DNA of 64,000 nt from contig CAAGKO010000009.1 of assembly GCA_900770445.1 (NCBI GenBank), positions 5,918-69,917 on the forward strand, read 5' to 3'. Below, in pieces: positions 8,836-30,200 of this stretch. This DNA comes from an uncultured Oribacterium sp. Lineage in GTDB: Bacteria; Bacillota; Clostridia; Lachnospirales; Lachnospiraceae. A program made the position numbers and the translations under genes. A model generated the notes under the pieces. It worked only from the letters and a program-made list of their open reading frames with translations, did not search any database and was not told the DNA's origin. The number at the start of each line of letters is the position of its first letter. Within the stretch, counting starts at the first letter, position 1.

Positions 8836-9192
8836 TATAAAAACACATCTGCGATATGTTTTTATGCAGCACGTGAGTTTTCAAAGAGAAAATACTTCGA
8901 TGTGATTTGCATCGTTACGAGAACCTTGTCATTTCAGAATGATAAGGTTCTTTTTTGTGCTTATAATTCGTTTTTAAATCTGTATAGACGCGATGTAAAC
9001 GAATGATATGGAACACATTTTACGCAAAGCACGCGTAAAATGTTCATATTTTGCACATTATATAAAAAATAAATATCACTATAATGACTGATACTGAAAA
9101 CACACAGATAAGTTTACCGGAGAGATGATGAAGAGAACATGTAAATCCATAACCCAATCCGGGTACGAGAATCATATGAAACAGGTGATAAA

Positions 9193-12108
9193 ATGAAAAA
9201 ACGAATGATGGCAAGCCTACTGGTAGCTGTGATGATTATAACTATGGTACAGTCTACGGTGCTTGCAGACTCTAATGAATCCATGAAACTACTTATGGAA
9301 AGTGAAGAGACGACAGATTCCCGCGACGATGATACGGCATCTCCGTCCGAGATCGATCGTGAAGAGACAACAGACTTCTGTGACGATGATGTGTCATCTC
9401 CATCCGACATTGAAGAAATCGAGCCGTTCGCAGAAGTAAACTATGAGGTATCCACCGACGCTGAGCTTATCACAGCACTGGATAAGATTAAGGCAAGCGA
9501 GGATACCGAAGCCACCATTGTGCTCGAAAAAGATGTAACGGCACCGAGTACTTCCGGCGGTAGCTATATGAGATCCTTTGGTGTGGATGGTAAGCATATT
9601 ACAGTAAAGAGCGAAGAGGGAGAAATGAAGAAGCTCTCCTTTCCTTATTATGGTGTTCTGACCGGTGACTGCACCTTTGATAATGTCGATGTGACCGGCA
9701 GCAGACTGTTCTGCAACGGTTACCAGACGATTTTCACCGAAAACGGTCAGATCCATTTGAGCGAAACGCTCTACGGCGGCGGTTACCAAACAACGGTAGC
9801 CAGTACATATGTTGTTATTGCAGCAACAGGTTATATCAATCCATACTCTGCCAGCGGTTTGCACGATGTGATTGGTGGCTCATATCAGGGATCGGTTGAG
9901 GGTGATACCTATCTGGAAATCACAGGTGATATTAAAATGCAGGGTGGCAACCACTTAAACCCTGGTTGCATGAAAGGTGATGGCAGTAGCGGCGATGGCA
10001 GGGATGTGCCCGATGTCTATGTCGGCGGCAATGCTACGCTGATTTATGACAACAAAAGCAGTACCGCGTCTCCTGCAATTGAAGGCACATACGGCTGCGA
10101 AATGAAGGGAGATGTCACGCTGGATGTTCGTGCAGGCCGTGTAGCGGGCATTGTCGGTACGGAGGAACCGGTCGATAAATCCATCATTCACGGTAATTTG
10201 CATATCATTGCAGGTAATCCTGCTTATGAGAATACCGATCAGGTTCTGCGGTTAGGTAGCAACTGGCCGATTATTGGCGCAGGCAATAGCTTTGCAACCT
10301 ATCCCGGTGTTGAGGGCAATTATACGGTAGACGGCAACATTACGATCGACACCTATGAAAATGTATGGGCATGGGACAAAGGAACTGAGCCCACCTCGTA
10401 TGATCTGCCGGAAATCTACGGAGCCTTGCGCGGTGATGTAGGCGGCAGCATTACGATCAATGCCCACGGTTCTCATGTACAGAACATTTTCGGTGCAAGC
10501 GATTCGGTTATTCAGGGTTCAGTTACGGTCAATGCAACCGATGTTGAACTGAAAAACAGCGAGTATGATACTGAATATGATGAAGGCTATCTTTTCGGCC
10601 TGTGGGAAAGAGGTATCCCAGCTACCGCCAAAGGCCCAGTGACCGTAACGGTAAACGGCGGCGATGTGGGCCTTGTGATGGCTACCGATCAAGAAACTGT
10701 ACCGGCGGGGTCTTCCATTAATGTCACCGGAAAGCCGAAAATCCGCAACGGTATCCGCGGAACACAGGCAAGTTCTTATTCGACCGAATTCCCGGTTGCC
10801 AATGTCTATGCCTGTGAGGCAACCATTCCGTTCATCAAGGGGATGTCGCAAGTCAATATCACAAACAATTCCGCAGTGACTGCCCATATTATGACCAGCA
10901 ATGCCGGCTTGTTGGTAGAGGAAGGCAGCAGCCTGACAACGGATAACGGTCAGGTCTGGATTTGGGGCGATACTGTCATTAACGGCACCTGGGAACAGCT
11001 GCATAGTCAGACGGCTAATTATAACGATATTTTTGTCAATGGCACCACACAGATCGGTTCAACCGGCCATCTGATCAATCATGGCGCAAGTAATCTGAAC
11101 GGGGCAGTGACCAATGACGGAGTGATGGCTTTCATGAGATGGGCATTACTTCAGAGTGACTATACGGCGAATCATGGGGAGCTGCGTCTGCCGGCAGTGG
11201 CAGATGGTGCAAATTACGATACCGGTACAATTCCGGTACAAATAAATGGACTTTCCACAGGTACAACTACGGTCAACACAGTTGATCCGGCAGACTGGAA
11301 TACATTGAAAAAACCTATGCTCGGCGACAACTATATTCTCTCAAAGAAAAATACGGATGCGCCTGCTCAGGAGGCGTTCCTCTTGGGGAATGAGGATGCT
11401 CTGCAAAGCGGCTGCTTTCTTAAACGTATGGCCGATGCTGACGGCACAGATGACTATTATATGTGGCAGGTGGCCAGTGGAATTCGTGTGATCTTCGACA
11501 AAGATGGTGGTGATACCGAAGCATCTCCTCACATTATGGTAGAGGAAAAAATCGCTGGCCTCGTAGACCATTTTAATCTGCCTAATGTCGAACCAACTCG
11601 TAGCAACTACGAGTTTACCGGCTGGAATACGAAGCCGGATGGGAGCGGAGATGTGTTCACTGCCGAAACCGATGTTAAAGAAAGCATGACGGTTTATGCA
11701 CAGTGGAAGCCTCTCACAAACAACGGCAGTGGTAATCCTGGAGGAACAGGCACCGAAGAGCACCCGGGAGGTGTAAGTGGTGGCAATGGAAATAACCCTG
11801 GAGGAGCTGGCAATGGAGAGCAAACAGGGAATGCAGGTGAAGGTAACAGTGTCATCGGTAGTGGCATAACGGAAGAAACGACCGCTGCGGATGGCCAGGA
11901 TTCCGCTACGCTGGTGACGCAGGACAATGCGATCACACCGGACAGTACAAACACACCGGAAAAGGCAGACGCACAGGATAGGCCGCAACCGCTGGCCGCG
12001 CACAGATCTGTAAAAACCGGTGATGAAAGCAATATGGTTCTGTGGTTCACGCTGATGCTTATCTCAGTTTGTGCATTTACAAGTGATTATATTTATAAGA
12101 GAAAGTAG
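9193..12108 (+). CDS. Large secreted cell-surface protein (putative adhesin) with a beta-solenoid-like G-rich repeat body, a Listeria-Bacteroides (Flg_new-type) repeat and a C-terminal cell-wall sorting signal
   Basis: Signal peptide MKKRMMASLLVAVMIITMVQS. The segment NYEFTGWNTKPDGSGDVFTAETDVKESMTVYAQWKP matches the Flg_new repeat. The C-terminus reads SVKTGD + hydrophobic stretch + KRK, a non-canonical LPXTG-like sortase signal. Confidence 0.7.
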   Translation: MKKRMMASLLVAVMIITMVQSTVLADSNESMKLLMESEETTDSRDDDTASPSEIDREETTDFCDDDVSSPSDIEEIEPFAEVNYEVSTDAELITALDKIKASEDTEATIVLEKDVTAPSTSGGSYMRSFGVDGKHITVKSEEGEMKKLSFPYYGVLTGDCTFDNVDVTGSRLFCNGYQTIFTENGQIHLSETLYGGGYQTTVASTYVVIAATGYINPYSASGLHDVIGGSYQGSVEGDTYLEITGDIKMQGGNHLNPGCMKGDGSSGDGRDVPDVYVGGNATLIYDNKSSTASPAIEGTYGCEMKGDVTLDVRAGRVAGIVGTEEPVDKSIIHGNLHIIAGNPAYENTDQVLRLGSNWPIIGAGNSFATYPGVEGNYTVDGNITIDTYENVWAWDKGTEPTSYDLPEIYGALRGDVGGSITINAHGSHVQNIFGASDSVIQGSVTVNATDVELKNSEYDTEYDEGYLFGLWERGIPATAKGPVTVTVNGGDVGLVMATDQETVPAGSSINVTGKPKIRNGIRGTQASSYSTEFPVANVYACEATIPFIKGMSQVNITNNSAVTAHIMTSNAGLLVEEGSSLTTDNGQVWIWGDTVINGTWEQLHSQTANYNDIFVNGTTQIGSTGHLINHGASNLNGAVTNDGVMAFMRWALLQSDYTANHGELRLPAVADGANYDTGTIPVQINGLSTGTTTVNTVDPADWNTLKKPMLGDNYILSKKNTDAPAQEAFLLGNEDALQSGCFLKRMADADGTDDYYMWQVASGIRVIFDKDGGDTEASPHIMVEEKIAGLVDHFNLPNVEPTRSNYEFTGWNTKPDGSGDVFTAETDVKESMTVYAQWKPLTNNGSGNPGGTGTEEHPGGVSGGNGNNPGGAGNGEQTGNAGEGNSVIGSGITEETTAADGQDSATLVTQDNAITPDSTNTPEKADAQDRPQPLAAHRSVKTGDESNMVLWFTLMLISVCAFTSDYIYKRK

Positions 12109-14269: not shown

Positions 14270-15020
14270 TAGACAATTTCACAAAAACCGTTTATAGCGT
14301 TCATACGCCATTAGTTTTTATGATTTTTGTTACAAATAAGCGATTTTCTGGCTGAGTGACATTAGATGGTTTTCGCAAAGCGAGGTTTTCAAAGAGCGAT
14401 GCCATTATATTTTCAGGAGTTTGTAATAAACAGGGCATTTTCAAGATGCGTGCCATTAAGTGACTTTTACAAATTCTAAATTTCAGCGATCTGTGCCATT
14501 AGATTATTTCACAGATTAAGAAATATCAGACTCTGTGACATTAAGCATTTGGCTTCGCAGATGGAATACGGGGCGATTTACGAAGAAAAATCTGGACGGA
14601 GATAAAGTCACAGCTTCTGAAATGGGCGGTTTTGCGTCAAAAATCGGGATTTCACTCGGATTTTACTGGGCGAGAGTGACGGGACTTAATGTCATAGACT
14701 CGCCAGGTGAGGAAGCTGTGAAAAAGTATAATGGCATACGATTCGGATAAAGTAAATTTGTGAAAAAACTGATGCCAGTCATCACTCGGTCCCCCTCTTA
14801 CCGTTGGCAGCCTTACCATTTTTCACTGTTTTGATGCAGCTTCACCCGCTCGAACGAAAACAGGCGCCGATTTTTCGTTTGCCTGCACGGGGCGGGGCAG
14901 ATATGTAAGTAGATAAAAGACATATACTGGGGTGGGCAGGCAAACGAGAAGCGGTGCCCCGGTATGGACATCACTTGAGAATTATCCAGGTTACAAAATC
15001 ACCCAGGCTGAACTGTTACT
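14270..15020. repeat. Copy 1 of a ~750-bp structured non-coding repeat. It holds an array of TG(N)CATTA motifs spaced ~42 bp and a GC-rich hairpin GTTTGCCTGC...GCAGGCAAAC.
   Basis: It is ~90% identical to the reverse complement of 29450-30200, and a partial third copy lies at 30405-30590. No intact ORF is conserved between the copies. Confidence 0.85.
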
Positions 15021-15059: not shown

Positions 15060-15087
15060 TTGACATTCGCGTTTCCGAAATTATAAT
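15060..15087 (+). promoter_or_regulatory. Sigma-A-type promoter (TTGACA-N16-TATAAT) upstream of dapL, followed by a terminator-like hairpin at 15094-15146
   Basis: TTGACA at 15060-15065 and TATAAT at 15082-15087. AAAAGGGCA...TGCCCTTTTT follows, ~50 nt before the ATG. Confidence 0.55.
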
Positions 15088-15194
15088 GTCATCAAAAGGG
15101 CAAGGGCGTCCTGGTTTCACCAGAGAGTCTATGCCCTTTTTCATTTGAAAAATACATATCGAACATTCAACATTTCATGCTGGGGAGTATAAAA

Positions 15195-16397
15195 ATGTCT
15201 GCAACGATCAATCAAAACTATCTGAAATTAAATGAGAGCTATCTTTTTGCGGAGATCGCGCGTCGTATCCGTGAGTGGCAGTCGGCGCATCCGGAGCTCA
15301 GCAGTCAGCTGATCCGCATGGGCATCGGTGATGTCACCCGCCCACTGCCGAAGACCGTCGTCGATGCGATGGTGAAGGCGGCGCAGGAGATGGGTCAGGC
15401 CGAGAGCTTCCATGGCTACGGTCCGGAGCAGGGCTACGATTTCCTGAAGACAGCGATCCAGTCTTATTATAAGAAGTTCGGCGTTCAGCTCGCCCTCGAC
15501 GAGATCTTCATCTCGGACGGCGCGAAGTCCGATCTCGGCAACATCCTGGATCTCTTCGATGAGAAGAACACCGTGCTCGTCACCGACCCGGTCTATCCGG
15601 TCTACGTCGACACCAACATGATGTCCGGCCGGAAGATCATCTACGCGATGTCTTCTGAAGAAAACGGATTCCTGCCGCTTCCGGCACCAGAGTACCGGGC
15701 CGACATCATCTACCTCTGCAGCCCGAACAACCCGACCGGTGCCGTCTATGACCGCGAGGGCCTCACGAAGTGGGTGCGTTTCGCACAGGAGAACAACGCC
15801 ATCCTCCTTTTCGATGCCGCCTATGAGTGCTTCGTGACCGGCGACCTGCCGCACAGTATCTATGAGATCCCGGGCGCACGTGACGTCGCGATCGAGTTCT
15901 GCAGCTTCTCGAAGAAGGCCGGATTCACGGGTACCCGTTGCGGCTACACCGTCGTACCGGACACCCTGAAGCGCGAGGGCGCGAGCCTCAACAAGATGTG
16001 GCTTCGCCGCCAGACCACGAAGTTCAACGGCGTGAGCTACATCACCCAGCGCGGTGCAGAGGCCGTCTTCACCGAGGCCGGCGAGCGGGAGATCGAGGAG
16101 AACCTGCAGTACTACAGGGACAATGCCTCCATCATCACCGAAACGATGGATCGTCTCCATATCTACTATACCGGTGGCAAGAATTCACCGTACATCTGGC
16201 TCAAGTGCCCTGGCGACATGGACAGCTGGAGCTTCTTCGATAAGCTTCTGAATGAAGCCTACGTGGTCGGCACCCCGGGCGCCGGCTTCGGAAAGAGCGG
16301 CGAGAAGTTCTTCCGCCTCACTGCCTTCTCGACCCACGAGAATACCCGCGAGGCGATGGCCCGCTTCGAGAAGCTCGTCCGGTCGATGAGTTTATAA
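15195..16397 (+). CDS. dapL: LL-diaminopimelate aminotransferase (class I/II PLP aminotransferase, DapL-like)
   Basis: N-terminal NYLKLNESYLFAEIARRI...IRMGIGDVTRPLP is diagnostic of DapL. PLP-lysine region SFSKKAGFTG. RBS GGGGAG. Confidence 0.7.
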   Translation: MSATINQNYLKLNESYLFAEIARRIREWQSAHPELSSQLIRMGIGDVTRPLPKTVVDAMVKAAQEMGQAESFHGYGPEQGYDFLKTAIQSYYKKFGVQLALDEIFISDGAKSDLGNILDLFDEKNTVLVTDPVYPVYVDTNMMSGRKIIYAMSSEENGFLPLPAPEYRADIIYLCSPNNPTGAVYDREGLTKWVRFAQENNAILLFDAAYECFVTGDLPHSIYEIPGARDVAIEFCSFSKKAGFTGTRCGYTVVPDTLKREGASLNKMWLRRQTTKFNGVSYITQRGAEAVFTEAGEREIEENLQYYRDNASIITETMDRLHIYYTGGKNSPYIWLKCPGDMDSWSFFDKLLNEAYVVGTPGAGFGKSGEKFFRLTAFSTHENTREAMARFEKLVRSMSL

Positions 16398-16568: not shown

Positions 16569-17834
16569 ATGATCGATTTAAGTAATACAATATTTAAAAC
16601 CTATGATGATGTTGAGGTGAAGGATATGAATTCGTATGAAGACATCCTCGAGTTTGTGGAAGAGGAGAATGTCAAGTTTATAAGACTCGCTTTTTTCGAT
16701 GTGTTCGGCGTTCAGAAGAACATCGCGATCATGCCGGATGAGCTGAAGCGTGCGTTCAGTGAGGGCATCAGCATCGATGCGAGCTCGGTATGCGGCTTCG
16801 GTGCGGATGTCCGTTCCGATATCTTCCTTCGTCCGGATCCGACGACCATGTCGATCGTGCCGTGGCGTCCGGTCGATGGCCGTGTGGCACGGATGTTCTG
16901 TGACATCGAGTATCCGGATGGAAAGACCTTCGAGAAGGACAGTCGCTGGATCCTGAAGCAGGCGGTCGAAAAGGCGGCCGATCGTGGCATCCACGTGAAC
17001 TTCGGCACCGAGGTCGAGTTCTACATCTTTAAGCTCGACGATGACGGCAACCGCACGATGATTCCGCAGGACCAGGCGTCCTACATGGACATCGCGCCGG
17101 AGGATCATGGTGAGAACATCCGCCGCGACATCAGCTTCGCCCTCGTGGACATGGGCATCCGCCCGGAGGCAAGTCATCACGAGATGGGCCCGGGACAGAA
17201 CGAGATCGACTTCCGTTATGCCGATCCGCTGATAGCGGCGGACAATGCTTCCACCTTCAAGTGGGTGGTGAAGTCCATCGCGACATCGGATGGCGTGTGG
17301 GCTGATTTTTCGCCGAAGCCACTCGCCGACAAGCCGGGCAACGGCATGCACATCAACATGTCGGTGGAGTCCCGTGACGGACAGGATCACAGCGCCGCCT
17401 TCATGGCGGGCATCCTCGAGCATATCCGTGAGATGACGCTCTTCCTGAATCCGACCCGGGAGAGCTACGAGCGACTCGGTGACATGAAGGCACCGAAGTT
17501 CGTGAGCTGGTCCGAGCAGAACCGCTCACAGCTCATCCGTATCCCGGCGAGCCGCTCGGATCTCAAGCGCTTCGAGCTCCGTTCACCGGATCCGATGGCG
17601 AATCCGTACCTCGCCTTCGCCCTGCTGATCTACGCCGGCCTCGATGGTATCGAGCGCGGACTCGAGCCGATGGCACCGCTGGATGTGAACCTGTTTAAGG
17701 CGGACGCATCCATCACGGATCAGCTGAAGCGCCTGCCGCAGTCACTCGACGAGGCTGCCGCCTACGCACAGAGCTCCGAGTTCATCCGGTCGATCGTGCC
17801 GGCGGAGTACTTCGACGCATATACGATTCTTTAG
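16569..17834 (+). CDS. glnA: Glutamine synthetase, short type I (GSI-alpha-like, 421 aa)
   Basis: GS ATP-binding signature KPLADKPGNGMHINMS and a GS catalytic-domain layout. Confidence 0.75.
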   Translation: MIDLSNTIFKTYDDVEVKDMNSYEDILEFVEEENVKFIRLAFFDVFGVQKNIAIMPDELKRAFSEGISIDASSVCGFGADVRSDIFLRPDPTTMSIVPWRPVDGRVARMFCDIEYPDGKTFEKDSRWILKQAVEKAADRGIHVNFGTEVEFYIFKLDDDGNRTMIPQDQASYMDIAPEDHGENIRRDISFALVDMGIRPEASHHEMGPGQNEIDFRYADPLIAADNASTFKWVVKSIATSDGVWADFSPKPLADKPGNGMHINMSVESRDGQDHSAAFMAGILEHIREMTLFLNPTRESYERLGDMKAPKFVSWSEQNRSQLIRIPASRSDLKRFELRSPDPMANPYLAFALLIYAGLDGIERGLEPMAPLDVNLFKADASITDQLKRLPQSLDEAAAYAQSSEFIRSIVPAEYFDAYTIL

Positions 17835-17854: not shown

Positions 17855-18457
17855 ATGGAAAGAACGGAGCAAAGGAGCAGCGTACTGATCGCGGCTCAAT
17901 CTGAAAAGATCGCCGTCCAGATCAAGGGCATACTGCCCGCTGGCTTCGGTCGCGTGACTTTCCAGCCGTCCATGGCGCGGGTGAAGCAGACGCTCACCGA
18001 GGAACGGGCGGATCTCCTGATCATCTACACACCGCTGTCGGATGATTCCGGCGTTCAGTCGATCCTCGATCTGAGTGTCAAATATCCGGCGATGAGCATC
18101 CTTCTCATCGTGTCGAAGGAAGCGTATCAACAGGTGCTTTACCGGGCCGGCGACACCGGCATCACGGTCCTGGCGAGACCGATCAGCACCGGCACCTTCG
18201 TTTCGGCGATCCAGATGCTCGGCGCGATGAGCCGTAAGGTTCAGCGTCTGCTCGAGGAGAATGCGAAGCTGCAGCGGAAGCTCGAGGATGAGCGTTACGT
18301 CAGCCGGGCAAAAGCCCTTCTCATCGAGAAGCAGGGCATGACGGAGGGCGAGGCACACAAGTACCTCGAGCGCCAGGCCATGAACGGCAGCGTCACCCGC
18401 CGCGAGGTCGCCCTGAAGATCATCCGCGAGAGCGGACGAATCATTGTAGGTACATGA
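17855..18457 (+). CDS. ANTAR-domain antiterminator with a pseudo-receiver domain (NitR/AmiR-like)
   Basis: C-terminal ANTAR helix region (VSRAKALLIEKQGMTEGEAHKYLERQAMNGSVTRREVALKII). The N-terminal REC-like fold carries Tyr (LLIIYTPL) where the phospho-acceptor Asp is expected. RBS GGGAG. Confidence 0.8.
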   Translation: MERTEQRSSVLIAAQSEKIAVQIKGILPAGFGRVTFQPSMARVKQTLTEERADLLIIYTPLSDDSGVQSILDLSVKYPAMSILLIVSKEAYQQVLYRAGDTGITVLARPISTGTFVSAIQMLGAMSRKVQRLLEENAKLQRKLEDERYVSRAKALLIEKQGMTEGEAHKYLERQAMNGSVTRREVALKIIRESGRIIVGT

Positions 18458-18489
18458 GAGGGCCGTGCGAACAATTAAATCTGTAAATG

Positions 18490-18548
18490 AAGAGGACAAT
18501 GGGGTCCGGGAAGTTTTTTTCCTGTGCCTTGTTGTCCTCTTTTTTATA
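18490..18548 (+). terminator. Leader terminator between the ANTAR regulator and glnN (AAGAGGACAA...TTGTCCTCTT + T6); candidate ANTAR antitermination target
   Basis: Strong intrinsic terminator in the 200-nt gap. glnN has its own RBS (AGGAGGAG) downstream. Confidence 0.7.
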
Positions 18549-18660: not shown

Positions 18661-20766
18661 ATGAGTACTACATCGGTTCCTGAGCTTTACGGAAGCCTTG
18701 TATTTAACGACAAGGTCATGCGCGAGCGACTGCCGAAGGACATCTACAAGGCAGTGCACAAGACCATCCAGAACGGATCCCATCTGGAGCTGGACGTGGC
18801 GAATACCGTCGCAGCGACGATGAAGGAGTGGGCACTGGAGCATGGCGCGACCCACTTCACACACTGGTTCCAGCCGATGACCGGCCTGACCGCAGAAAAG
18901 CATGACAGCTTCATTTCCCCGAGCGAAAACGGAAGCGTCATCATGGAGTTCTCCGGCAAGGAGCTCGTCAAGGGCGAGCCGGATGCCTCCTCCTTCCCGA
19001 GTGGCGGCCTCCGTGCCACCTTCGAGGCCCGCGGCTATACCGCATGGGACCCGAGCTCACCTGCCTTCATCAAGGACGGCACCCTGTACATCCCGACCGC
19101 ATTCTGCTCGTACTCCGGCGAATCCCTCGATAAGAAGACCCCGCTGCTCCGCTCCATGGAGACCCTGAGCGAGTCTGCGACGAAGCTGCTCCACATCCTC
19201 GGCAAGGAAAAGGTCACCCGCGTCGACACCACCGTCGGCTCCGAGCAGGAGTACTTCCTGATCGATAAGGACCTCTACACCGAGCGTGAGGACCTCATGC
19301 TCACCGGCCGTACCCTGATCGGCGCTCCGGCACCGAAGGGGCAGGAGATGGAGGATCACTACTTCGGCGTACTGAAGCCAAAGGTATCCGAGTTCATGCA
19401 CGATCTCGACCAGGAGCTCTGGAAGCTCGGCGTTCCGGCGAAGACCAAGCACAACGAAGTGGCACCGTCACAGCACGAGCTGGCACCTGTCTTTGAGACC
19501 GCCAATATCGCCGTCGACCACAATCAGCTTACCATGGAGATGATGAAGAAGGTCGCCGACAAGCATAATTATGCATGCCTCCTGCACGAGAAGCCTTTCG
19601 AGGGCATCAACGGCTCCGGTAAGCACAACAACTGGTCCATGATCACCTCCGAGGGTGAGAACCTGCTCGATCCGGGCAAGACGCCGGGGAAGAACGTTCA
19701 GTTCCTGCTCTTCCTCATGGGTATCGTCAGTGCAGTGGATGAGTATGCAGATCTGATGCGTGTATCCGTCGCAACCGCGGGCAATGATCACCGCCTGGGC
19801 GCAAATGAAGCACCTCCAGCCATCGTTTCCATCTATGTCGGCGATGAGCTCGAGAAGGTCCTCGAGTCCATCGAAAACGGCGAGGATTTCACCTCCTCGG
19901 ATTCGAAGCAGCTTGAGACCGGTGCCCACGTTCTGCCACACTTCGTACAGGACAACACCGACCGTAACCGTACCTCACCGTTTGCCTTCACCGGCAACAA
20001 GTTCGAGTTCCGTATGCCGGGCTCCTCACTTTCCGTCGCAGACCCGAACATCGTACTGAACACCGCCGTCGCGGAGGCACTCGACCAGATCTGCGCGAAG
20101 CTCGAGGACGTCGATCCGAAGGATCTCGAGGAAGAGGCGATGAAGCTCGTCAAGAAGCTCCTCAAGAAGCACAGAAGAATCATCTTCAACGGTAACGGTT
20201 ACACCGATGCGTGGGTAGCCGAGGCAGAGAAGAGAGGCCTCTACAACCTCAAGTCCCTCCCGGAGGCGATGCCGCAGATCAAGGCAAAGAAGAACAAGGA
20301 GCTCTTCGAAAAGCACCACGTCTTCACCGAGACCGAGATCGACTCCCGCTATGAGATCTACCTCGAGAACTACTCGAAGACCATCCGCATCGAGGCACTC
20401 ACCATGCTCGAGATGGTCAAGAAGGACTTCACCGACGGCTTGATGGCATATGAAACCGCCCTCACCGACACCGCGATCCAGAAGAAGCAGGTACTCGCCG
20501 GCGCGAAGTGCACACTCGAAACCAGCATCCTCACGAAGCTCGACGCCGCATCCGAAGCGATCGGCCTCGCCGTCGAAAAGCTCGAGAAGGACCTCGCCGA
20601 GACCCAGACGATCACTGACAGCCTCGCCCTCGCCACCGCGTACCACGACACCATCCTCGCCGACATGGATGCCCTCCGTGCCCCGGTCGACGCAGCCGAA
20701 GAGATGATCCCGGAGACCTACCTCCCGTACCCGACCTACTCGAAGCTCCTGTTCTCACTTAGATAA
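18661..20766 (+). CDS. glnN: Glutamine synthetase type III
   Basis: ~700-aa GS-III architecture (N-terminal MSTTSVPELYGSLVFND..., core HEKPFEGINGSGKHNNWS). Confidence 0.9.
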   Translation: MSTTSVPELYGSLVFNDKVMRERLPKDIYKAVHKTIQNGSHLELDVANTVAATMKEWALEHGATHFTHWFQPMTGLTAEKHDSFISPSENGSVIMEFSGKELVKGEPDASSFPSGGLRATFEARGYTAWDPSSPAFIKDGTLYIPTAFCSYSGESLDKKTPLLRSMETLSESATKLLHILGKEKVTRVDTTVGSEQEYFLIDKDLYTEREDLMLTGRTLIGAPAPKGQEMEDHYFGVLKPKVSEFMHDLDQELWKLGVPAKTKHNEVAPSQHELAPVFETANIAVDHNQLTMEMMKKVADKHNYACLLHEKPFEGINGSGKHNNWSMITSEGENLLDPGKTPGKNVQFLLFLMGIVSAVDEYADLMRVSVATAGNDHRLGANEAPPAIVSIYVGDELEKVLESIENGEDFTSSDSKQLETGAHVLPHFVQDNTDRNRTSPFAFTGNKFEFRMPGSSLSVADPNIVLNTAVAEALDQICAKLEDVDPKDLEEEAMKLVKKLLKKHRRIIFNGNGYTDAWVAEAEKRGLYNLKSLPEAMPQIKAKKNKELFEKHHVFTETEIDSRYEIYLENYSKTIRIEALTMLEMVKKDFTDGLMAYETALTDTAIQKKQVLAGAKCTLETSILTKLDAASEAIGLAVEKLEKDLAETQTITDSLALATAYHDTILADMDALRAPVDAAEEMIPETYLPYPTYSKLLFSLR

Positions 20767-20772
20767 ATGACA

Positions 20773-20803
20773 GGATCTGACCCCACTTCGTGGCGTCAGA
20801 TCC
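20773..20803 (+). terminator. Hairpin GGATCTGACCCCACTTCGTGGCGTCAGATCC after glnN
   Basis: 9-bp perfect stem immediately after the stop codon; a variant of the recurring GGGGTCAGACCCC family. Confidence 0.5.
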
Positions 20804-20816
20804 TTCTGAATAAAAC

Positions 20817-21150
20817 CTTACGGCAGAAGAAATCGGCGCAGGGACCACGAATTTACGGTAGAAGAAATCGGCGCATGGAGGTCGCCACGAACGTACGGCA
20901 GAAGAAATCGGAACAGGGAGGGGACATAATTGCGCATTCAAAGAACAGGTTCCAGTGTAATGTACGTCATGAACACACAGAACGTGTTCTGTGATGGGCA
21001 TGACGAACATTGCACTGGGTTCTGTACTTTGAACTAAGTGAGTTGTCCCCTCCCTGTCCGATTTCTTCGTACTATACATTAGCGGCGCGACCTCCATGAC
21101 CGATTTCTTCGTACCATGAATCCCCTCCCTGTCCGATTTCTTCGTACCAT
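20817..21150. repeat. ~335-bp near-perfect palindrome: three direct ~32-bp units (TACGGCAGAAGAAATCGG...GGAGG), a palindromic core, then three inverted units. It ends 2 nt before the gltB RBS.
   Basis: L2 (20852-20885) is the exact complement of R2 (21083-21115). L3 (20893-20925) is the exact complement of R3 (21045-21075), and R1 (21118-21150) repeats that unit. The core 20926-21044 is itself palindromic. Confidence 0.85.
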
Positions 21151-21166
21151 ATTTAGTGGAGTATAT

Positions 21167-24100
21167 ATGAATACTTATCAAAATCAGAGCACCTTTACTG
21201 TGCCAGAGCAGTACAGGGGACACAACACACTCTGGCGTCCCCAGTCCATCGAGGACATGAATGAGCTCACCCAGGATGCCTGCGGTATCGGCAGCGTCGT
21301 GAACATCGACGGCCACCAGGATACGCGCGTCCTGGACGATGCACTGCATATCGTGGAAAAGCTCGAGCACCGCGCCGGTAAGGACGCGAGCGGCAAGGTC
21401 GGCGATGGCGTCGGCATCCTCCTGCAGATCAGCCACAGCTTCTTTAAGAAGGCGGCACTCACGCAGGGGATCCAGCTTCGTGACGAGCGTGACTACGGTG
21501 TCGGCATGTTTTTCTTCCCGGAGGACCAGCTGAAGCGGACCTTCGCGAAGCGTATGTTCGAGGTCATCACCGAGAAGAACGGACTCCGTTTCCTCGGCTG
21601 GCGTGAGGTGCCGGTGCATCCGGAGATCCTCGGTCAGGTGGCGGTCGACTGCATGCCGCATATCCTGCAGTGCTTCATCGAGCGCCCGGAGGACGCAGAG
21701 AGAGGCATCGATTTTGATCGGCGTTTATATGTACTTCGCCGCGAGTTCGAGCAGTCCTCAGAGGATACCTATATCTGTTCTCTGAGCTCCCGGACCATCG
21801 TATATAAGGGCATGTTCCTGGTAAAGCAGCTCCGTGCCTTCTATGATGACCTGCGTGACCCGGATTATCGGACCGCCATCGCCATCGTGCACTCCCGTTT
21901 CTCGACGAATACCACGCCGAGCTGGGATCGTGCGCATCCATACCGCATGATCGCCCATAACGGTGAGATCAATACCATCCGTGGAAACATTGACCGTATG
22001 CTCGCCCGTGAGGAGACCATGTCGAGCCCGCTGCTCGAGAAGGACGTGGAGAAGATCTTCCCGGTCGTGGAGCGCAGTGGATCGGATTCCGCGATGCTCG
22101 ACAACACCCTCGAGTTCCTCTACATGAACGGCATCGATCTGCCGCTCGCGATGATGATGACCATCCCGGAGCCGTGGAAGCACAACCGCTTCATGGACCA
22201 GAATAAGAAGGATTTCTATCACTACTACGCAACCATGATGGAGCCGTGGGATGGACCGGCGGCGATCCTCTTCTCCGATGGTGATGTGGTCGGCGCGACC
22301 CTCGACCGTAACGGCCTTCGTCCGTCCAGATACTACATCACCGACGACAACCGACTGATCCTGTCCTCCGAGGTCGGCGTCCTCGACATCGACCCGAAGC
22401 ACATCGTGCAGAAGTCCCGACTCCAGCCGGGCCGTATGCTGCTCGTCGACACGAAGGCGCAGCGCATCATCTCGGACGAGGAGTGCAAGGAAGCCTATGC
22501 GGCACGTGAGCCGTACGGTGAGTGGCTCGACCGGAACCTCCTCCACATCGAGGATCTGAAGATCCCGAACCGAAAGATCCCGACGCACACGCAGGAGATG
22601 CGTGACCGCCTCTATAAGGTCTTCGGCTACAGCTACGAGGATGTGAAGTCCGTGATCCTCCCGATGGCCCAGAACGGCATCGAGCAGACCGCGTCGATGG
22701 GCCACGATGTCCCGCTCGCGGTGCTCAGCAAGCAGCATCAGCTCCTGTTTAACTACTTCAAGCAGCTCTTCGCCCAGGTCACCAACCCGCCGATCGACTC
22801 CCTCCGCGAGAAGATCGTCACGGATACGACCGTGTACATCGGCTCCGATGGTAATCTGCTGCAGGATCAGGCCGACAACTGCCGCGTGCTCGAGGTGGAG
22901 AATCCGATCCTCACGGGCGTCGAGCTCATGAAGATCAAGGACCTCAACCAGCCGGGCTTCCGGACCGAGGTGATCTCGCTTCTCTACTATAAGAACACAT
23001 CTCTCGAGAAGGCCCTGGAGCAGCTCAATATTTCGGTCGATCGTGCATACCAGCGCGGCTACAACATCATCATCCTGAGCGATCGTGGGGTCGACGAGAA
23101 CCATGTGCCGATTCCGTCCCTGCTGGCGGTGAGCTCCGTCGAGCAGCATCTCGTCCAGACGAAGAAGCGGACCGCCGTGTCCCTGATCCTCGAGTCTGCT
23201 GAACCACGTGATGTACATCAGTTTGCAACCATCCTCGGCTTCGGTGCCCGTGCGATCAACCCGTACCTCGCCCATGAGTGCATCGCCGAGATGATCGACA
23301 TCGGTATCCTCGATAAGGATTATCATACCGCCATCGAGGACTATAACAAGGCGGTTCTGAACGGCATCGTAAAGATCGCGGCGAAGATGGGTATTTCGAC
23401 GATTCAGTCCTACCAGTCGGCGAAAATCTTTGAGGCCATCGGTCTCAGCAAGGAGCTGGTGGAAAAGTACTTCACCGGTACGGTGTCGAGGGTCGGCGGC
23501 ATTGGCATCCAGGACATCGCCGAGGGCGTAACCTGGCGGCATGACCATGCGTTTGATCCGATGGGATTAAGCCTTGATACCGCGCTCGATTCCGTCGGCT
23601 TCCATCAGCTTCGTTCGGGTCGGGGCACCGAGGATCATCTCTATGATCCGGAGACGATCATTACCCTTCAGCGCTCGGTTCGGAGTGATGAGAGCGATTA
23701 TAAGAAATTTAAGGAGTACACGGCGCGCATCGATGACGAGCGTCGGCCGCATACACTGCGTGGACTTCTGAAGTTTGCGCCGAAGAATCAGCCGGTGCCG
23801 ATCGAGGAGGTCGAGCCGGTATCGTCCATCGTGAAGCGTTTCAAGACCGGTGCGATGTCCTACGGTTCGATTTCGCAGGAGGCGCACGAGGCGATGGCCA
23901 TCGCGATGAACCGCCTCGGCGGCAAGTCCAACACCGGTGAGGGTGGTGAGCACCCGGATCGTTTCGGTACCGAGCGGAATTCCGCCATCAAACAGGTTGC
24001 GTCCGGTCGTTTCGGCGTGACCAGTGCCTATCTCAACTCCGCCGTCGAGATCCAGATCAAGATGGCGCAGGGCGCGAAGCCGGGCGAGGGCGGCCATCTG

Positions 24101-25786
24101 CCGGGCAAGAAGGTCTATCCGTGGATCGCGAAGACCCGTTTTTCGACCCCGGGTGTGTCCCTCATTTCCCCGCCGCCTCACCACGATATCTACAGTATCG
24201 AGGACCTGGCGCAGCTGATCTATGATCTGAAGAACGCGAACCGCCGTGCCGCGATCGCCGTCAAGCTCGTGTCCGAAAACGGCGTCGGCACCATCGCAAG
24301 TGGTGTTGCCAAGGCTGGCGCCCAGGTCATCCTCGTGTCCGGCTACGATGGAGGTACCGGTGCGGCACCGATGACCTCGATCCACCATGCGGGTCTTCCG
24401 TGGGAGCTCGGCATCACCGAGGCGCACCATGCGCTGATCGAGAACGGGCTTCGTAACCGCGTCAAGCTCGAGACCGATGGTAAACTGATGACCGGCCGCG
24501 ATGTCGTGATCGCTGCACTGCTCGGTGCGGAGGAGTATGGCTTCGCGACGACCGCGCTCGTCTGCCTCGGCTGCATGATGATGCGTGTCTGCAACAAGGA
24601 TACCTGTCCGTTCGGCGTCGCTACCCAGAACGACGTTCTCCGCAAGCGCTTCACGGGCAAGCCGGAGTACGTCATGAACTTCATGCGCTTCATCGCACAG
24701 GAGATGCGCGAGTACATGGCGGAGCTCGGTTTCCGTACCGTGGACGAGATGATCGGCCGTACCGACTGTCTCACGGTCAATGCTTCGGCCGCGCAGGTCA
24801 CCACGCGCTCGGCAGAGGTGGATCTCTCTGCGATTCTGGATCCGCGCTATGCGACCCTTCCGGAAGAGGAGCGTCACTTTGACCCGAAGCATGTCTATGA
24901 TTTCCATCTCGAGAAGACCCTCGATGAGTCAGTGCTTCTCCGGAAGTTTGCCCCGGCCATCGCGAGCGGTCAGCACCACGAGGAGAGGGTCGAGGTTTCG
25001 AGCACGAACCGTACCTTCGGTACCATCCTCGGCTCCGAGATCACCGATCACTACGGCATGACACCGGAGGGCGATACCCTGCCGGATGATACCTTCGTGG
25101 TCGAGGCGTACGGCGGTGGCGGCCAGTCCTTCGGTGCCTTTATCCCGAAGGGCCTGACGATCCGTCTCCATGGCGATGCCAATGATGGCTTCGGTAAGGG
25201 CCTGAGCGGCGGTAAGCTCGTCGTGGTGCCACCGGAGGGAAGTCCGTTCCGCGCCAGTGAGAACATCATCGTCGGCAACGTCGCCCTCTATGGTGCGACG
25301 GCCGGCAAGTGCTATGTGAACGGTGTCGCCGGTGAGCGCTTCTGCGTTCGTAATTCCGGTGCGACGGCGGTCGCCGAGGGCTGTGGCGATCATGGCCTCG
25401 AGTACATGACCGGCGGACGTGCCGTCATCCTCGGACCGACCGGCAAGAACTTCGCCGCCGGTATGTCCGGTGGTATCGCCTACGTCCTCGATATGGATCA
25501 CTCGCTCTATCTCAAGCTCAACAAGGACATGGTTTCCCTGCTGGAGGTCACCGAGAAGTATGACATCCAGGAGCTGAAGGAGATCCTCACGGATTATGTG
25601 AAGGAGACGAAGTCGGAGCTCGGCACAGAGATCCTCCGGAACTTCGATATGTTCCTCCCGAGCTTCAAGAAAATCGTGCCGAACGACTACCAGAAGGTAC
25701 TGACCGCGGTCAGCCACTTCGAAGAGCAGGGCATCTCCCATGAAAATGCGGAGCTGGAAGCTTTTAAGTCTTTGTTTGCAGTGTAG
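21167..25786 (+). CDS. gltB: Glutamate synthase large subunit
   Basis: N-terminal ...DACGIGSV Ntn-amidotransferase start. FMN/Fe-S central domain and C-terminal GXGXG-type domain. RBS GGAG before the ATG at 21167. The ORF-track start at 21116 overlaps the palindrome. Confidence 0.9.
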   Translation: MNTYQNQSTFTVPEQYRGHNTLWRPQSIEDMNELTQDACGIGSVVNIDGHQDTRVLDDALHIVEKLEHRAGKDASGKVGDGVGILLQISHSFFKKAALTQGIQLRDERDYGVGMFFFPEDQLKRTFAKRMFEVITEKNGLRFLGWREVPVHPEILGQVAVDCMPHILQCFIERPEDAERGIDFDRRLYVLRREFEQSSEDTYICSLSSRTIVYKGMFLVKQLRAFYDDLRDPDYRTAIAIVHSRFSTNTTPSWDRAHPYRMIAHNGEINTIRGNIDRMLAREETMSSPLLEKDVEKIFPVVERSGSDSAMLDNTLEFLYMNGIDLPLAMMMTIPEPWKHNRFMDQNKKDFYHYYATMMEPWDGPAAILFSDGDVVGATLDRNGLRPSRYYITDDNRLILSSEVGVLDIDPKHIVQKSRLQPGRMLLVDTKAQRIISDEECKEAYAAREPYGEWLDRNLLHIEDLKIPNRKIPTHTQEMRDRLYKVFGYSYEDVKSVILPMAQNGIEQTASMGHDVPLAVLSKQHQLLFNYFKQLFAQVTNPPIDSLREKIVTDTTVYIGSDGNLLQDQADNCRVLEVENPILTGVELMKIKDLNQPGFRTEVISLLYYKNTSLEKALEQLNISVDRAYQRGYNIIILSDRGVDENHVPIPSLLAVSSVEQHLVQTKKRTAVSLILESAEPRDVHQFATILGFGARAINPYLAHECIAEMIDIGILDKDYHTAIEDYNKAVLNGIVKIAAKMGISTIQSYQSAKIFEAIGLSKELVEKYFTGTVSRVGGIGIQDIAEGVTWRHDHAFDPMGLSLDTALDSVGFHQLRSGRGTEDHLYDPETIITLQRSVRSDESDYKKFKEYTARIDDERRPHTLRGLLKFAPKNQPVPIEEVEPVSSIVKRFKTGAMSYGSISQEAHEAMAIAMNRLGGKSNTGEGGEHPDRFGTERNSAIKQVASGRFGVTSAYLNSAVEIQIKMAQGAKPGEGGHLPGKKVYPWIAKTRFSTPGVSLISPPPHHDIYSIEDLAQLIYDLKNANRRAAIAVKLVSENGVGTIASGVAKAGAQVILVSGYDGGTGAAPMTSIHHAGLPWELGITEAHHALIENGLRNRVKLETDGKLMTGRDVVIAALLGAEEYGFATTALVCLGCMMMRVCNKDTCPFGVATQNDVLRKRFTGKPEYVMNFMRFIAQEMREYMAELGFRTVDEMIGRTDCLTVNASAAQVTTRSAEVDLSAILDPRYATLPEEERHFDPKHVYDFHLEKTLDESVLLRKFAPAIASGQHHEERVEVSSTNRTFGTILGSEITDHYGMTPEGDTLPDDTFVVEAYGGGGQSFGAFIPKGLTIRLHGDANDGFGKGLSGGKLVVVPPEGSPFRASENIIVGNVALYGATAGKCYVNGVAGERFCVRNSGATAVAEGCGDHGLEYMTGGRAVILGPTGKNFAAGMSGGIAYVLDMDHSLYLKLNKDMVSLLEVTEKYDIQELKEILTDYVKETKSELGTEILRNFDMFLPSFKKIVPNDYQKVLTAVSHFEEQGISHENAELEAFKSLFAV

Positions 25787-25822: not shown

Positions 25823-27352
25823 ATGGGTAAGGTAACAGGATTTCTCGACTATGCGAGAGAAGATAATAAAGACGTTCCGGTAGAGGAGCGTATCAAAAAC
25901 TTTAAAGAATTTCATATCCCCCTCACGGAGGAGGAGCGTCGGAAGCAGGGCGCGCGCTGCATGAACTGCGGTGTCCCGTTCTGCCAGTCCGGCATGAAGC
26001 TGGCGGGCATGTTCACGGGCTGTCCGCTCCACAATCTCTGCCCGGAGTGGAACGATGAGGTCTACAACGGCCACGTCGCCCATGCACTGAGCCGTCTTTT
26101 GAAGACGAACAACTTCCCGGAGTTCACCGGCCGTGTCTGCCCGGCGCTCTGCGAGAAGGCCTGTGTCGAGGGGCTCGATGACGCGCCGGTGACGACACAC
26201 GACAACGAGCTCTACATCATCGAGAAGGCCTTCCGGGAGGGCTACATGCAGCCGCGGATCCCGGAGGTCCGCTCCGGTAAGCGCGTCGCCGTCATCGGTG
26301 CCGGTCCGGCCGGCCTCGCAGTGGCGGATCAGCTGAACCATCGTGGCCACAGCGTCACCGTCTTCGAGCGCGCGGATGAGATCGGCGGTCTCCTCATGTA
26401 CGGTATACCGAACATGAAGCTCGACAAGTCCGTCATCCGTCGTCGCCGCGCCCTCATGGAAGCGGAAGGCGTCGTCTTCCGTACCGGCGTGGACGTGGGC
26501 CGCGAGACATTGACCGCCGGAAAGGGCAGCGCGGTCACCGCGGCATCGATCCTCCGGGACTACGACGCGGTCGTCCTGGCCTGTGGCGCGAAGCAGGCGC
26601 GCGGACTCAATGTGCCGTTCATCGAGCAGGCGCACGGCATCCACTACGCGGTCGACTACCTGACGAGCCAGACGAAGGCCCTCCACGAGCAGGGCGAGCA
26701 TGCCTTCGGCGTCATCAACGCGAAGGGGAAGCATGTCGTCATCGTCGGTGGCGGTGACACCGGAAACGACTGCTGCGGTACCGCGATCCGCCAGGGTGCG
26801 AAGTCGGTGACCCAGATCGAGATGATGCCGGAGCCGCCGGTCGAGCGTGCAGCGTCGAATCCGTGGCCGGAGTGGCCGAAGGTCCTGAAGGTCGATTACG
26901 GCCAGCAGGAGGCCATCCGCGTCTTCGGACATGACCCGCGCGTTTACGAGACGACGATCAAGGCCATCGAGACGAAGAAGGACGGCAGCATCAAGGCCGT
27001 CATCACCTCGAAGGTGAAGTTCGAGAATCGGCAGATGGTACTCGTCGAGGGCACGGAGCAGAAGCTGCCGTGTGACCTCCTCATCATCGCCGCCGGCTTC
27101 ACCGGCTGCGAAAGCTACGTCGCCGACGCCTTCGGTGTCGCACTCACCGAGCGCCATGTCGTAAAGACGGAGGCGGAGCACTACCACACGGAAAGCGCAG
27201 AGAAGCCGATGGCTGCTGCAAATGCCGCGAAGATCTTCACCGCAGGCGACATGCACCGCGGACAGTCCCTCGTCGTCTGGGCCATCGCCGAAGGCCGCGC
27301 CTGTGCAAGCGAAGTCGACGCGTACCTGATGGGTTACAGCTGCCTCGCGTAA
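25823..27352 (+). CDS. gltD: Glutamate synthase small subunit (NADPH-dependent oxidoreductase)
   Basis: N-terminal Fe-S cysteine cluster (CMNCGVPFC...C) and two Rossmann GXGXXG motifs (VIGAGPAG, VIVGGGDTGNDC). Confidence 0.85.
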   Translation: MGKVTGFLDYAREDNKDVPVEERIKNFKEFHIPLTEEERRKQGARCMNCGVPFCQSGMKLAGMFTGCPLHNLCPEWNDEVYNGHVAHALSRLLKTNNFPEFTGRVCPALCEKACVEGLDDAPVTTHDNELYIIEKAFREGYMQPRIPEVRSGKRVAVIGAGPAGLAVADQLNHRGHSVTVFERADEIGGLLMYGIPNMKLDKSVIRRRRALMEAEGVVFRTGVDVGRETLTAGKGSAVTAASILRDYDAVVLACGAKQARGLNVPFIEQAHGIHYAVDYLTSQTKALHEQGEHAFGVINAKGKHVVIVGGGDTGNDCCGTAIRQGAKSVTQIEMMPEPPVERAASNPWPEWPKVLKVDYGQQEAIRVFGHDPRVYETTIKAIETKKDGSIKAVITSKVKFENRQMVLVEGTEQKLPCDLLIIAAGFTGCESYVADAFGVALTERHVVKTEAEHYHTESAEKPMAAANAAKIFTAGDMHRGQSLVVWAIAEGRACASEVDAYLMGYSCLA

Positions 27353-29449: not shown

Positions 29450-30200
29450 TCCGTAACCGTTCAGCCGGGGTGATTTTGTAACCTGTATAATTATCAAGGG
29501 ATGTCCATACCGGGCGCCTCTTCTCGTTTGCCTGCCCTCCCCAGTATACATCCTTTATCTGCGTGCATATTGGCCCCGCCCCGTGCAGGCAAACAAAAAA
29601 TCGGCGCCTGTTTTCGGCCGAGCGAGTGATGCTGTATCAAAACAGTGAAAAATGGGAAGGATGCCAACGGTAAAAGCGTATCCGAAGTTGGAGGCTGCCA
29701 CCCGGTATTTCACAAATTCGCTTTATCAGAAGCGTGTGCCATTAGGCTTTGTCACATTTTCCACTTCTGACGAACCTGTGACATTAAGTCCACTCACGCT
29801 CGCGCTGCGCCATCTGAGTAAAAATGCGGTTTTTGACGCAAAACCGCCCTTTTCAGAAGCTGTGACTTTACTCCGCCCAGATTTTTCTTCGTAAATCGCC
29901 TCGTATTCCCTCCTCGAAGCCAAATACTTAATGTCACAGCTTCGAATATTTCCCTGTCTGTGAAATAATCTAATGGCACAGATCCATGAAATCCATGATT
30001 TGTAAAAGTCACTTAATGGCATGAATCTTGAAACCGCCCCGTTTGTTACAAATTCCAGAAAATATAATGGCATCGCTCTATGAAATCCTATCTTTGCGAA
30101 AATCATATAATGTCGCTCAGCCCGAAAATCGCCTGTTTGTAACAAAGATCATAAAATCTAATGGCGCAAGAATGCTATACACAGTTTTTGTGAAAACATC
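29450..30200. repeat. Copy 2 (inverted) of the ~750-bp structured repeat
   Basis: Its reverse complement aligns base-for-base (~90%) with 14270-15020, including the TG(N)CATTA array and the GTTTGCCTGC...GCAGGCAAAC hairpin. Confidence 0.85.

Follow-up and report, generated by a model that had tools for sequence, protein, structure and literature searches.

The 335-bp palindrome between glnN and gltB in this stretch of Oribacterium (Lachnospiraceae) DNA, 64 kb in all and called the window below, is on balance probably a passenger: a low-copy, non-coding repeat of the MITE/ERIC/Correia/BOX type, with incidental effects on the mRNA and no dedicated role in regulating gltBD. Closely related strains manage without the element, so it is not a required or dedicated gltBD regulator. 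The palindrome would represent the largest (3+3) allele of a repeat family of an Oribacterium clade, and what the members appear to have in common is a conserved 168-nt core hairpin made of an inner GAAGAAATCGG unit, a centre and an inverted unit. There is a caveat to the passenger reading, namely that only two locus types have been found, so that this is not a prolific MITE.

The repeat has no sequence relation to any described family, and a literature search returned no mention of such a repeat in Oribacterium. Its distinctive features are the mirrored arrays of terminal units and a natural allelic series at one operon junction. With these data a tempting false lead is removed, as a striking palindrome near a key nitrogen gene turns out to be dispensable and common to an unrelated locus, and an apparently undescribed family of palindromic repeats is documented in a genus of gut and oral Lachnospiraceae.

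Setting in the nitrogen cluster

Coding DNA of the window shares 93-95% identity with contigs labelled Oribacterium, and its GlnN matches a protein named for Oribacterium sp. P9 at 98% identity. The palindrome lies in a cluster of nitrogen genes, upstream of which an asparagine synthase gene is found on the opposite strand. The genes and signals are the following.

15177-16397, + strand: aminotransferase
16569-17834, + strand: GS type I
17855-18457, + strand: ANTAR-domain protein
18661-20766, + strand: GS type III (glnN)
21158-21161, + strand: gltB ribosome-binding site GGAG, followed by the start codon ATG at 21167-21169, both outside the long hairpin
21167-25786, + strand: gltB
25823-27352, + strand: gltD

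The initial annotation put the gltB Shine-Dalgarno (SD) sequence at 21153, 2 nt after the right arm; its actual position is 21158-21161. Pairing in the long stem extends to 21143 and the last unit to 21147, which leaves 10-14 nt between the element and the SD. Strains with and without the element have an identical SD and start context at gltB.

Is the palindrome placed to gate the gltB promoter and 5' UTR, as had been proposed? A consensus scan of 20500-21500 detected neither a sigma-70-like promoter nor a gltB-strand terminator, and the stem is not followed by a U-tract terminator; inspection by eye revealed no sigma-54 (-24/-12), GlnR/TnrA, cre or LexA-type site. In the strains that lack the element only 58 nt, holding nothing more than a small REP-like hairpin, separate the glnN stop from the gltB start. 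Because these empty spacers leave no room for a promoter and none was detected, gltBD is most likely read through from glnN, and the gating proposal is not supported. Judged from the sequence, glnN-gltB-gltD most likely forms one transcription unit.

Membership in a known family of structured RNAs, be it a riboswitch such as the glutamine riboswitch, a leader or an sRNA, was also considered and rejected: Rfam 15 gave 0 matches at gathering score in the whole window, and within 20600-21400 only chance miRNA/snoRNA matches with E >= 0.35.

Architecture of the palindrome

The overall design is the one first described, with three direct units, a palindromic core and three inverted units, at window positions 20819-21147. 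The exact 11-mer GAAGAAATCGG occurs in all three left-arm units (at 20826, 20861 and 20901), where it is followed by a CA(G/T)GGAGG-like sequence, and CCGATTTCTTC occurs in all three inverted units of the right arm (at 21058, 21100 and 21133). From left to right, the parts are as follows.

20772-20804, + strand: small hairpin AGGATCTGACCCCAC-TTC-GTGGCGTCAGATCCT, directly 3' of the glnN stop codon, without a U-tract
20819-20846, + strand: left-arm unit 1, decayed X-type, TACGGCA-GAAGAAATCGG-CGCAGGGACC
20854-20885, + strand: left-arm unit 2, Y-type, TACGGTA-GAAGAAATCGG-CGCATGGAGGTCGC
20894-20926, + strand: left-arm unit 3, inner X-type, TACGGCA-GAAGAAATCGG-AACAGGGAGGGGACA, left end of the 168-nt core
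20927-21043, no strand: central quasi-palindrome of ~117 bp, dyad at 20984/20985 (CACAGAAC-GT-GTTCTGTG)
21044-21072, - strand: right-arm inner unit, X-type inverted, TGTCCCCTCCCTGT-CCGATTTCTTC-GTAC, right end of the 168-nt core
21085-21114, - strand: right-arm middle unit, Y-type inverted, GCGCGACCTCCATGA-CCGATTTCTTC-GTAC
21121-21147, - strand: right-arm outer unit, X-type inverted, TCCCCTCCCTGT-CCGATTTCTTC-GTAC

Two unit types thus alternate, X ending in ...CAGGGAGGGGACA and Y in ...CATGGAGGTCGC. The conserved 168-nt core of the element corresponds to 20901-21068, and the centre between the inner units is an imperfect palindrome, with conserved asymmetric internal loops and a stem that carries compensatory substitutions between lineages. 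The small hairpin at 20772-20804 is kin to the GGGGTCNGACCCC REP-like palindromes; it lies outside the big palindrome and inside the variable spacer.

The unit pairs are not exact complements over their full length, as had been stated for two of them: complementarity is exact only over the 11-12-nt cores and the GGGAGGGGA blocks, with a 1-nt bulge difference in the inner pair and GGCGCATGG versus GGTCATGG in the middle pair. Even so, the repetition is far beyond chance. Six exact matches to the 11-mer GAAGAAATCGG are found at the palindrome, compared with 1.7 expected in the whole 64-kb window when one mismatch is allowed, and 0 of 100 shuffles equalled the observed count. The palindrome is not an assembly artefact either, because the same 3+3 arrangement recurs in the independent assemblies L144 and L167.

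The only open reading frame inside the element (190-335 bp) encodes 20-35 amino acids and has a variable end. In the window it spans 20930-21037 on the + strand, with a TTG start 8 nt past the GGGAGGGG of the inner unit and a 35-aa product (MRIQRTGSS...). In other alleles it stops after 20 aa, and its variable residues track the compensatory changes of the stem. This mini-ORF is probably not a gene.

Folding and conservation of the hairpin

The expectation that the palindrome, if transcribed, would form a very long RNA hairpin is in agreement with the predicted fold. The RNA folds into a single long bulged hairpin of -219.5 kcal/mol, compared with -113 +/- 6 for shuffled sequences (z = -17.8), and the opposite strand folds equally well (-228.7 kcal/mol). 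The single arms do no better than shuffles (z = +0.7 to +0.9). Since each arm by itself is unstructured, the units are not individual stem-loops, and the idea of units acting as self-folding hairpins or protein-binding stem-loops was rejected.

Predicted stability is graded across the alleles of the spacer: -30 kcal/mol for the empty one, -130 for 1+1, -146 to -178 for 1+2 to 2+2, and -215 for 3+3. The gltB SD is left unpaired by the long stem in all of the filled alleles.

As for conservation, 16 distinct 168-nt cores from both loci were aligned in a common orientation. They support 66 pairs, with 98% of the cells paired, and at 17 of these 66 pairs both sides have changed in a compensatory manner, against 0-3 in slid controls; none of 500 shuffles reached as high a covariation score. 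The asymmetric internal loops of the hairpin are conserved as well. The compensatory changes, together with the controls, mean that the hairpin is maintained. Its upkeep could reflect selection on RNA or on single-stranded DNA, or gene conversion from arm to arm in a DNA palindrome.

Could the hairpin be more than a passenger? Strong covariation and conserved asymmetric bulges could mean that the hairpin itself is selected for a function. In that case it would be an adaptive RNA module, a selected cis-acting site of mRNA processing or stability whose unit number tunes GOGAT against GS-III, with both copies functional and non-selfish. The 17 of 66 compensatory pairs and the loops conserved across lineages speak for it, as do the graded fold stability and the unit 11-mers, invariant in 41 of 41 cases in protein-ascertained loci. 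In addition, the loci are only two, positionally stable, presumably transcribed and non-coding, and both are beside genes acting on glutamine amide groups. However, the compensatory pattern can also come from arm-to-arm gene conversion in a DNA palindrome, the heavily sampled lineages P0283 and P0284 are empty at gltB in all places read, and both strands fold equally well. Moreover, transcription would run through the two copies in opposite directions, so that no single RNA sequence is conserved. An adaptive module is rather unlikely in our view, and the low-copy passenger repeat is the explanation retained here.

Strain variation at the glnN-gltB spacer

A scan of the genome collection for two tandem units gave at least 119 loci; among those listed, five were relevant (orthologous) and the rest mostly chance; a scan of metagenomes for the inner inverted pair added further orthologous loci. 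The number of units, left arm plus right arm, differs widely among them.

3+3: window, L144
2+2: L072, L110, L143
2(+1 decayed)+2: L036
1+2: L075
1+1: L132
1+3: L125

To avoid ascertainment through the repeat itself, 36 spacers were gathered by GlnN protein identity. Thirteen of them are empty, nine are 1+1, four 1+2, two 2+1, four 2+2 and one 3+3; two were cut by contig ends, and L147, which has an assembly gap, was excluded from the unit counts. The comparison of the spacer in relatives, as the initial annotation had suggested, therefore reveals a presence/absence polymorphism.

The empty alleles include near neighbours of the window. For example, the GlnN of L168 is 100% identical to that of the window and its spacer is empty; the element is likewise absent at the loci of the close relatives L160, L162 and L186-L196. 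Every place read is empty in P0284 (107 contigs) and P0283 (46 contigs), the two lineages with the heaviest sampling. Absence from close relatives with unchanged gltB expression had been named beforehand as an outcome against a regulatory role, and the absence half of it is what the spacers display.

Filled alleles differ at short distance too. The P0112 strains share one GlnN sequence and are 1+2, 2+1 or 2+2, which indicates that gain and loss proceed separately on the two arms. Slippage, or unequal recombination among the direct repeats of 33-42 bp, probably accounts for the turnover of the extra terminal units. A side observation concerns L184 and L185, whose spacer contains a chimeric 1+1 allele, Y-type on the left and X-type on the right; beside its termini the stem pairs less well (-115 versus -130 kcal/mol), and the allele is evidence of recombination between element variants.

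Three contigs (L071, L175 and L183) end inside the element, as expected for a repeat, and its presence explains the assembly breaks at the glnN-gltB spot. Finally, a glnN-gltB copy is also found in a species at 86% nucleotide identity (L125), so that the polymorphism may be due to loss or to replacement of alleles rather than to recent transposition.

A second genomic locus

The initial annotation had proposed a search for other copies of the 32-bp unit. None was found elsewhere in the 64-kb window, and metagenome contigs yielded a second locus. This copy (L120, L123 and L128) is of the 1+1 type, 85-87% identical, and sits in the 3' UTR of a transglutaminase-like gene (Pfam PF01841), 13-17 nt past the stop codon and ~25 nt before the intrinsic terminator of the gene. 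With respect to transcription, its orientation is opposite to that of the gltB copy.

Each of three metagenome samples contained exactly two locus types, the glnN-gltB and the transglutaminase-like one, and copies within a sample share the haplotype of the centre (L120 versus L132). When the site was looked up through the transglutaminase-like protein, the full element was present in 13 of 15 further places; the remaining two, L181 and L182, are deletion variants that keep one unit. As no other locus type was recovered by the metagenome scan or by the protein look-ups, the intact copy number appears to be about two. Homologues further removed from the second-locus gene (78% and 64% identity) lie in other contexts and have no element, and hence offer no clean empty site.

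Two minor points concern this locus. In the deletion variants (L181 2694-2720 and L182 1657-1683) the deletion takes the centre, the other arm and the terminator, and fuses unit X to the TTG start of a downstream traX-like gene, with GGGAGGGG at the SD position. Further, the transglutaminase-like gene ends in codons (TTCGAAGAACTCG / TTCGAAGAAATCTAA; L120 2000-2021 and L198 2225-2252) that resemble the terminal CGAAGAAATCGG of the element; this could be chance, or homology that guided insertion.

The existence of a second copy, at an unrelated gene and reversed, argues against an operator specific for gltB or for nitrogen. The same copy, together with the absence from close relatives, leaves the suggested binding of a regulator at six sites unsupported.

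Regulatory and switch readings

Another question is whether the palindrome is a dedicated gltBD site, either as six operators for an oligomeric factor or as a set of ANTAR RNA targets, working as a terminator, an antiterminator or an SD-masking switch. The idea draws on the location inside a nitrogen-assimilation cluster (aminotransferase, GS-I, ANTAR, GS-III, gltB and gltD), with an ANTAR gene two genes upstream, and on units that are repeated and invariant in sequence; ANTAR regulons typically consist of nitrogen genes, glutamate synthase included (PMC3369931). The ANTAR target is a pair of hexaloop mini-hairpins with A at position 1 and G at position 4 of the loop, the second one overlapping an intrinsic terminator (PMC3369931). 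However, no such pair was found in the element by a scan of 20764-21170, single candidates being located only at 15097-15112 and 18494-18507. There is also no promoter and no U-tract after the stem, the SD remains free, neither arm has structure by itself, close relatives live without the element, and the second copy stands reversed after an unrelated gene. A dedicated site is thus very improbable.

The two single candidates are of interest in their own right. A perfect sigma-70 promoter, TTGACA-17-TATAAT (~15061-15089), followed by a leader terminator, precedes the aminotransferase gene (window 15061-15150), and the interval between the ANTAR gene and glnN contains another intrinsic terminator (window 18485-18545). 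The 5' arm of each terminator contains a mini-hairpin with an A..G.. hexaloop, AGGGC-AAGGGC-GTCCT at 15097-15112 and GGAC-AATGGG-GTCC at 18494-18507. These are likely the ANTAR antitermination sites of the nitrogen cluster.

Might the element be an inverton, in which the inverted units are recombination sites and the centre flips to change the expression of gltBD? One species (L071 and L125) has a centre that is exactly reverse-complemented compared with every other locus; the flanking A-type and B-type termini stay put, and the breakpoints are within the 11-bp GAAGAAATCGG core. From its sequence this inversion is genuine. An occasional single inversion is, however, expected for any palindrome through recombination between inverted repeats, and no recombinase is present among the ~10 annotated genes on either side of the element. 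Because ~30 other filled loci, many with identical GlnN, share one orientation, and because the centre has no promoter, a phase switch is not supported; the centre is moreover nearly symmetric, and its flipping would change little. An inverton is scarcely credible on these grounds. As an aside, the L125 allele with the inverted centre (9009-9329) has three units on the right arm and one on the left.

A broader proposal is a two-site functional system, in which a sequence-specific protein recognises the invariant GAAGAAATCGG units and the unit number, from 0 to 3+3, acts as a heritable, strain-level rheostat or switch of GOGAT against GS-III. Candidates for this protein would be an RNA-binding regulator, or else a recombinase or transposase with DNA hairpins as its substrate, and if such a system were real, the inversion in L071/L125 would be a trace of that recombination activity. 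We regard this as quite unlikely.

Mobile-element features

The low-copy passenger repeat preferred here has several features of a miniature mobile element. The initial description of a foldback or MITE-like structure that separates glnN from gltBD is apt, as the element is small (190-335 bp), non-coding and bounded by inverted repeats of 24-33 bp (TACGGCA-GAAGAAATCGG... and ...CCGATTTCTTC-GTAC), and it has the presence/absence polymorphism of a MITE, with 13 of 36 spacers empty. At each of the two loci TA or TAC is found at both junctions, and the empty site has it once (CCCCAT-TAC-AAAAATT); this is suggestive of a target-site duplication but ambiguous, since the right junction carries one more C and the left flank of the empty allele differs. 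No autonomous IS with the same ends was among the genome-collection matches listed. The plasmid, phage and viral collections gave no matches to the element, and an origin from any of these was rejected.

Some of the hits recovered were discarded. L116, a distant Lachnospiraceae glnN locus, is a chance pattern match inside coding sequence. A group of soil metagenome loci (L122, L124, L126, L127 and L138-L141) are unrelated palindromes of 155-180 nt that share the 11-mer pair by chance; in those loci that span the whole contig (L122, L124, L126, L127, L138 and L139) the palindrome is almost exactly at the contig midpoint, and these soil palindromes are probably foldback assembly artefacts.

Comparison with known families and effects on mRNA

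Among the known families, the BOX elements of Streptococcus pneumoniae (boxA-boxB(n)-boxC) are similar in being non-coding, modular and intergenic, with ends that pair into a hairpin once transcribed. They are modular hairpin repeats with a strain-variable number of tandem modules (PMC3049150), and here too the module number differs between strains at a given locus. BOX elements often lie in spacers that are transcribed, and they can change how the adjacent gene is expressed (PMC3049150). However, there is no sequence similarity, BOX has >100 copies whereas two loci per genome are seen for the element, and BOX varies a single internal boxB array whereas the element varies its terminal units, mirrored on both arms.

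The Correia elements of Neisseria and the ERIC/IRU elements of enterobacteria are likewise imperfect palindromes, of 100-200 bp, with terminal inverted repeats, found at transcribed intergenic sites (for the element the transcription is deduced) and present or absent depending on the strain. Both form long RNA hairpins that RNase III can bind or cut, with changes in mRNA levels (PMC2649163, PMC2229807, PMC3184786); for Correia elements, binding or cutting by RNase III goes along with altered expression of the neighbouring gene (PMC2649163). In contrast to these families, the element shows no similarity to them in sequence, its TA duplication is not established, no outward promoter was found at its ends, its copy number is very low, and its arms consist of 1-3 direct units. 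More generally, repeats of the ERIC/Correia/BOX type come in tens to hundreds of copies that match a family consensus, and only two loci were found here; their stable RNA hairpin in a transcribed intergenic region has its counterpart in the element, if the spacer is transcribed as the sequence suggests.

By analogy with Correia, ERIC and BOX, the most likely effect on the message is an incidental one. The element sits in an intercistronic spacer, and the co-transcribed glnN-gltBD mRNA would probably contain a bulged duplex of 170-330 nt. Such a duplex would serve as a barrier to 3'-exonucleases or as an RNase III site, and the stability or abundance of the glnN portion of the mRNA relative to the gltBD portion would shift, with the gltB SD left unmasked. 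The natural alleles, from 0 to 3+3 at one intercistronic site, are a ready-made test of hairpin length against mRNA processing and the GS-III:GOGAT ratio.

Like the element, REP/BIME/REPIN sequences consist of extragenic palindromic units combined into inverted pairs and variable mosaics and occupy 3' gene ends and sites inside operons, and the Oribacterium spacers with the element also hold small GGGGTCNGACCCC REP-like hairpins. They differ in that the units of the element are not self-folding, its hairpin measures 170-330 nt and not 30-100 nt, and its copy number is low.

Several transposase-binding repeats per transposon end are found in Mu, in Tn7 and in Tc1/mariner elements of the IR/DR type. 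The resemblance lies in the up to three direct, short, conserved sites that are mirrored in inverted form at the other end. However, the element has neither a transposase gene nor cargo, its unit number varies among near-identical strains, and no related autonomous element was among the matches listed.

Other small repeats in the window

The window contains six copies of the short REP-like palindrome GGGGTC[AT]GACCCC, often in the form ATGGGGTCTGACCCCATTAC (6158, 16407, 16473, 48108, 49815 and 49865), against 0.14 expected, and this palindrome forms the hairpins of the empty and of the L075-type glnN-gltB spacers (L075, L148, L164 and L160). The glnN-gltB spacer is therefore a mosaic of small repeats.

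Arrays of a ~42-nt repeat with GTGCCATTAR (15 matches against 3.9 expected) occupy the intergenic regions 14300-14560 and 29736-30167, in both orientations. They are another dispersed repeat family, and a stretch of the same type is found at L120 4356-4656, 68% identical to window positions 29775-30073.
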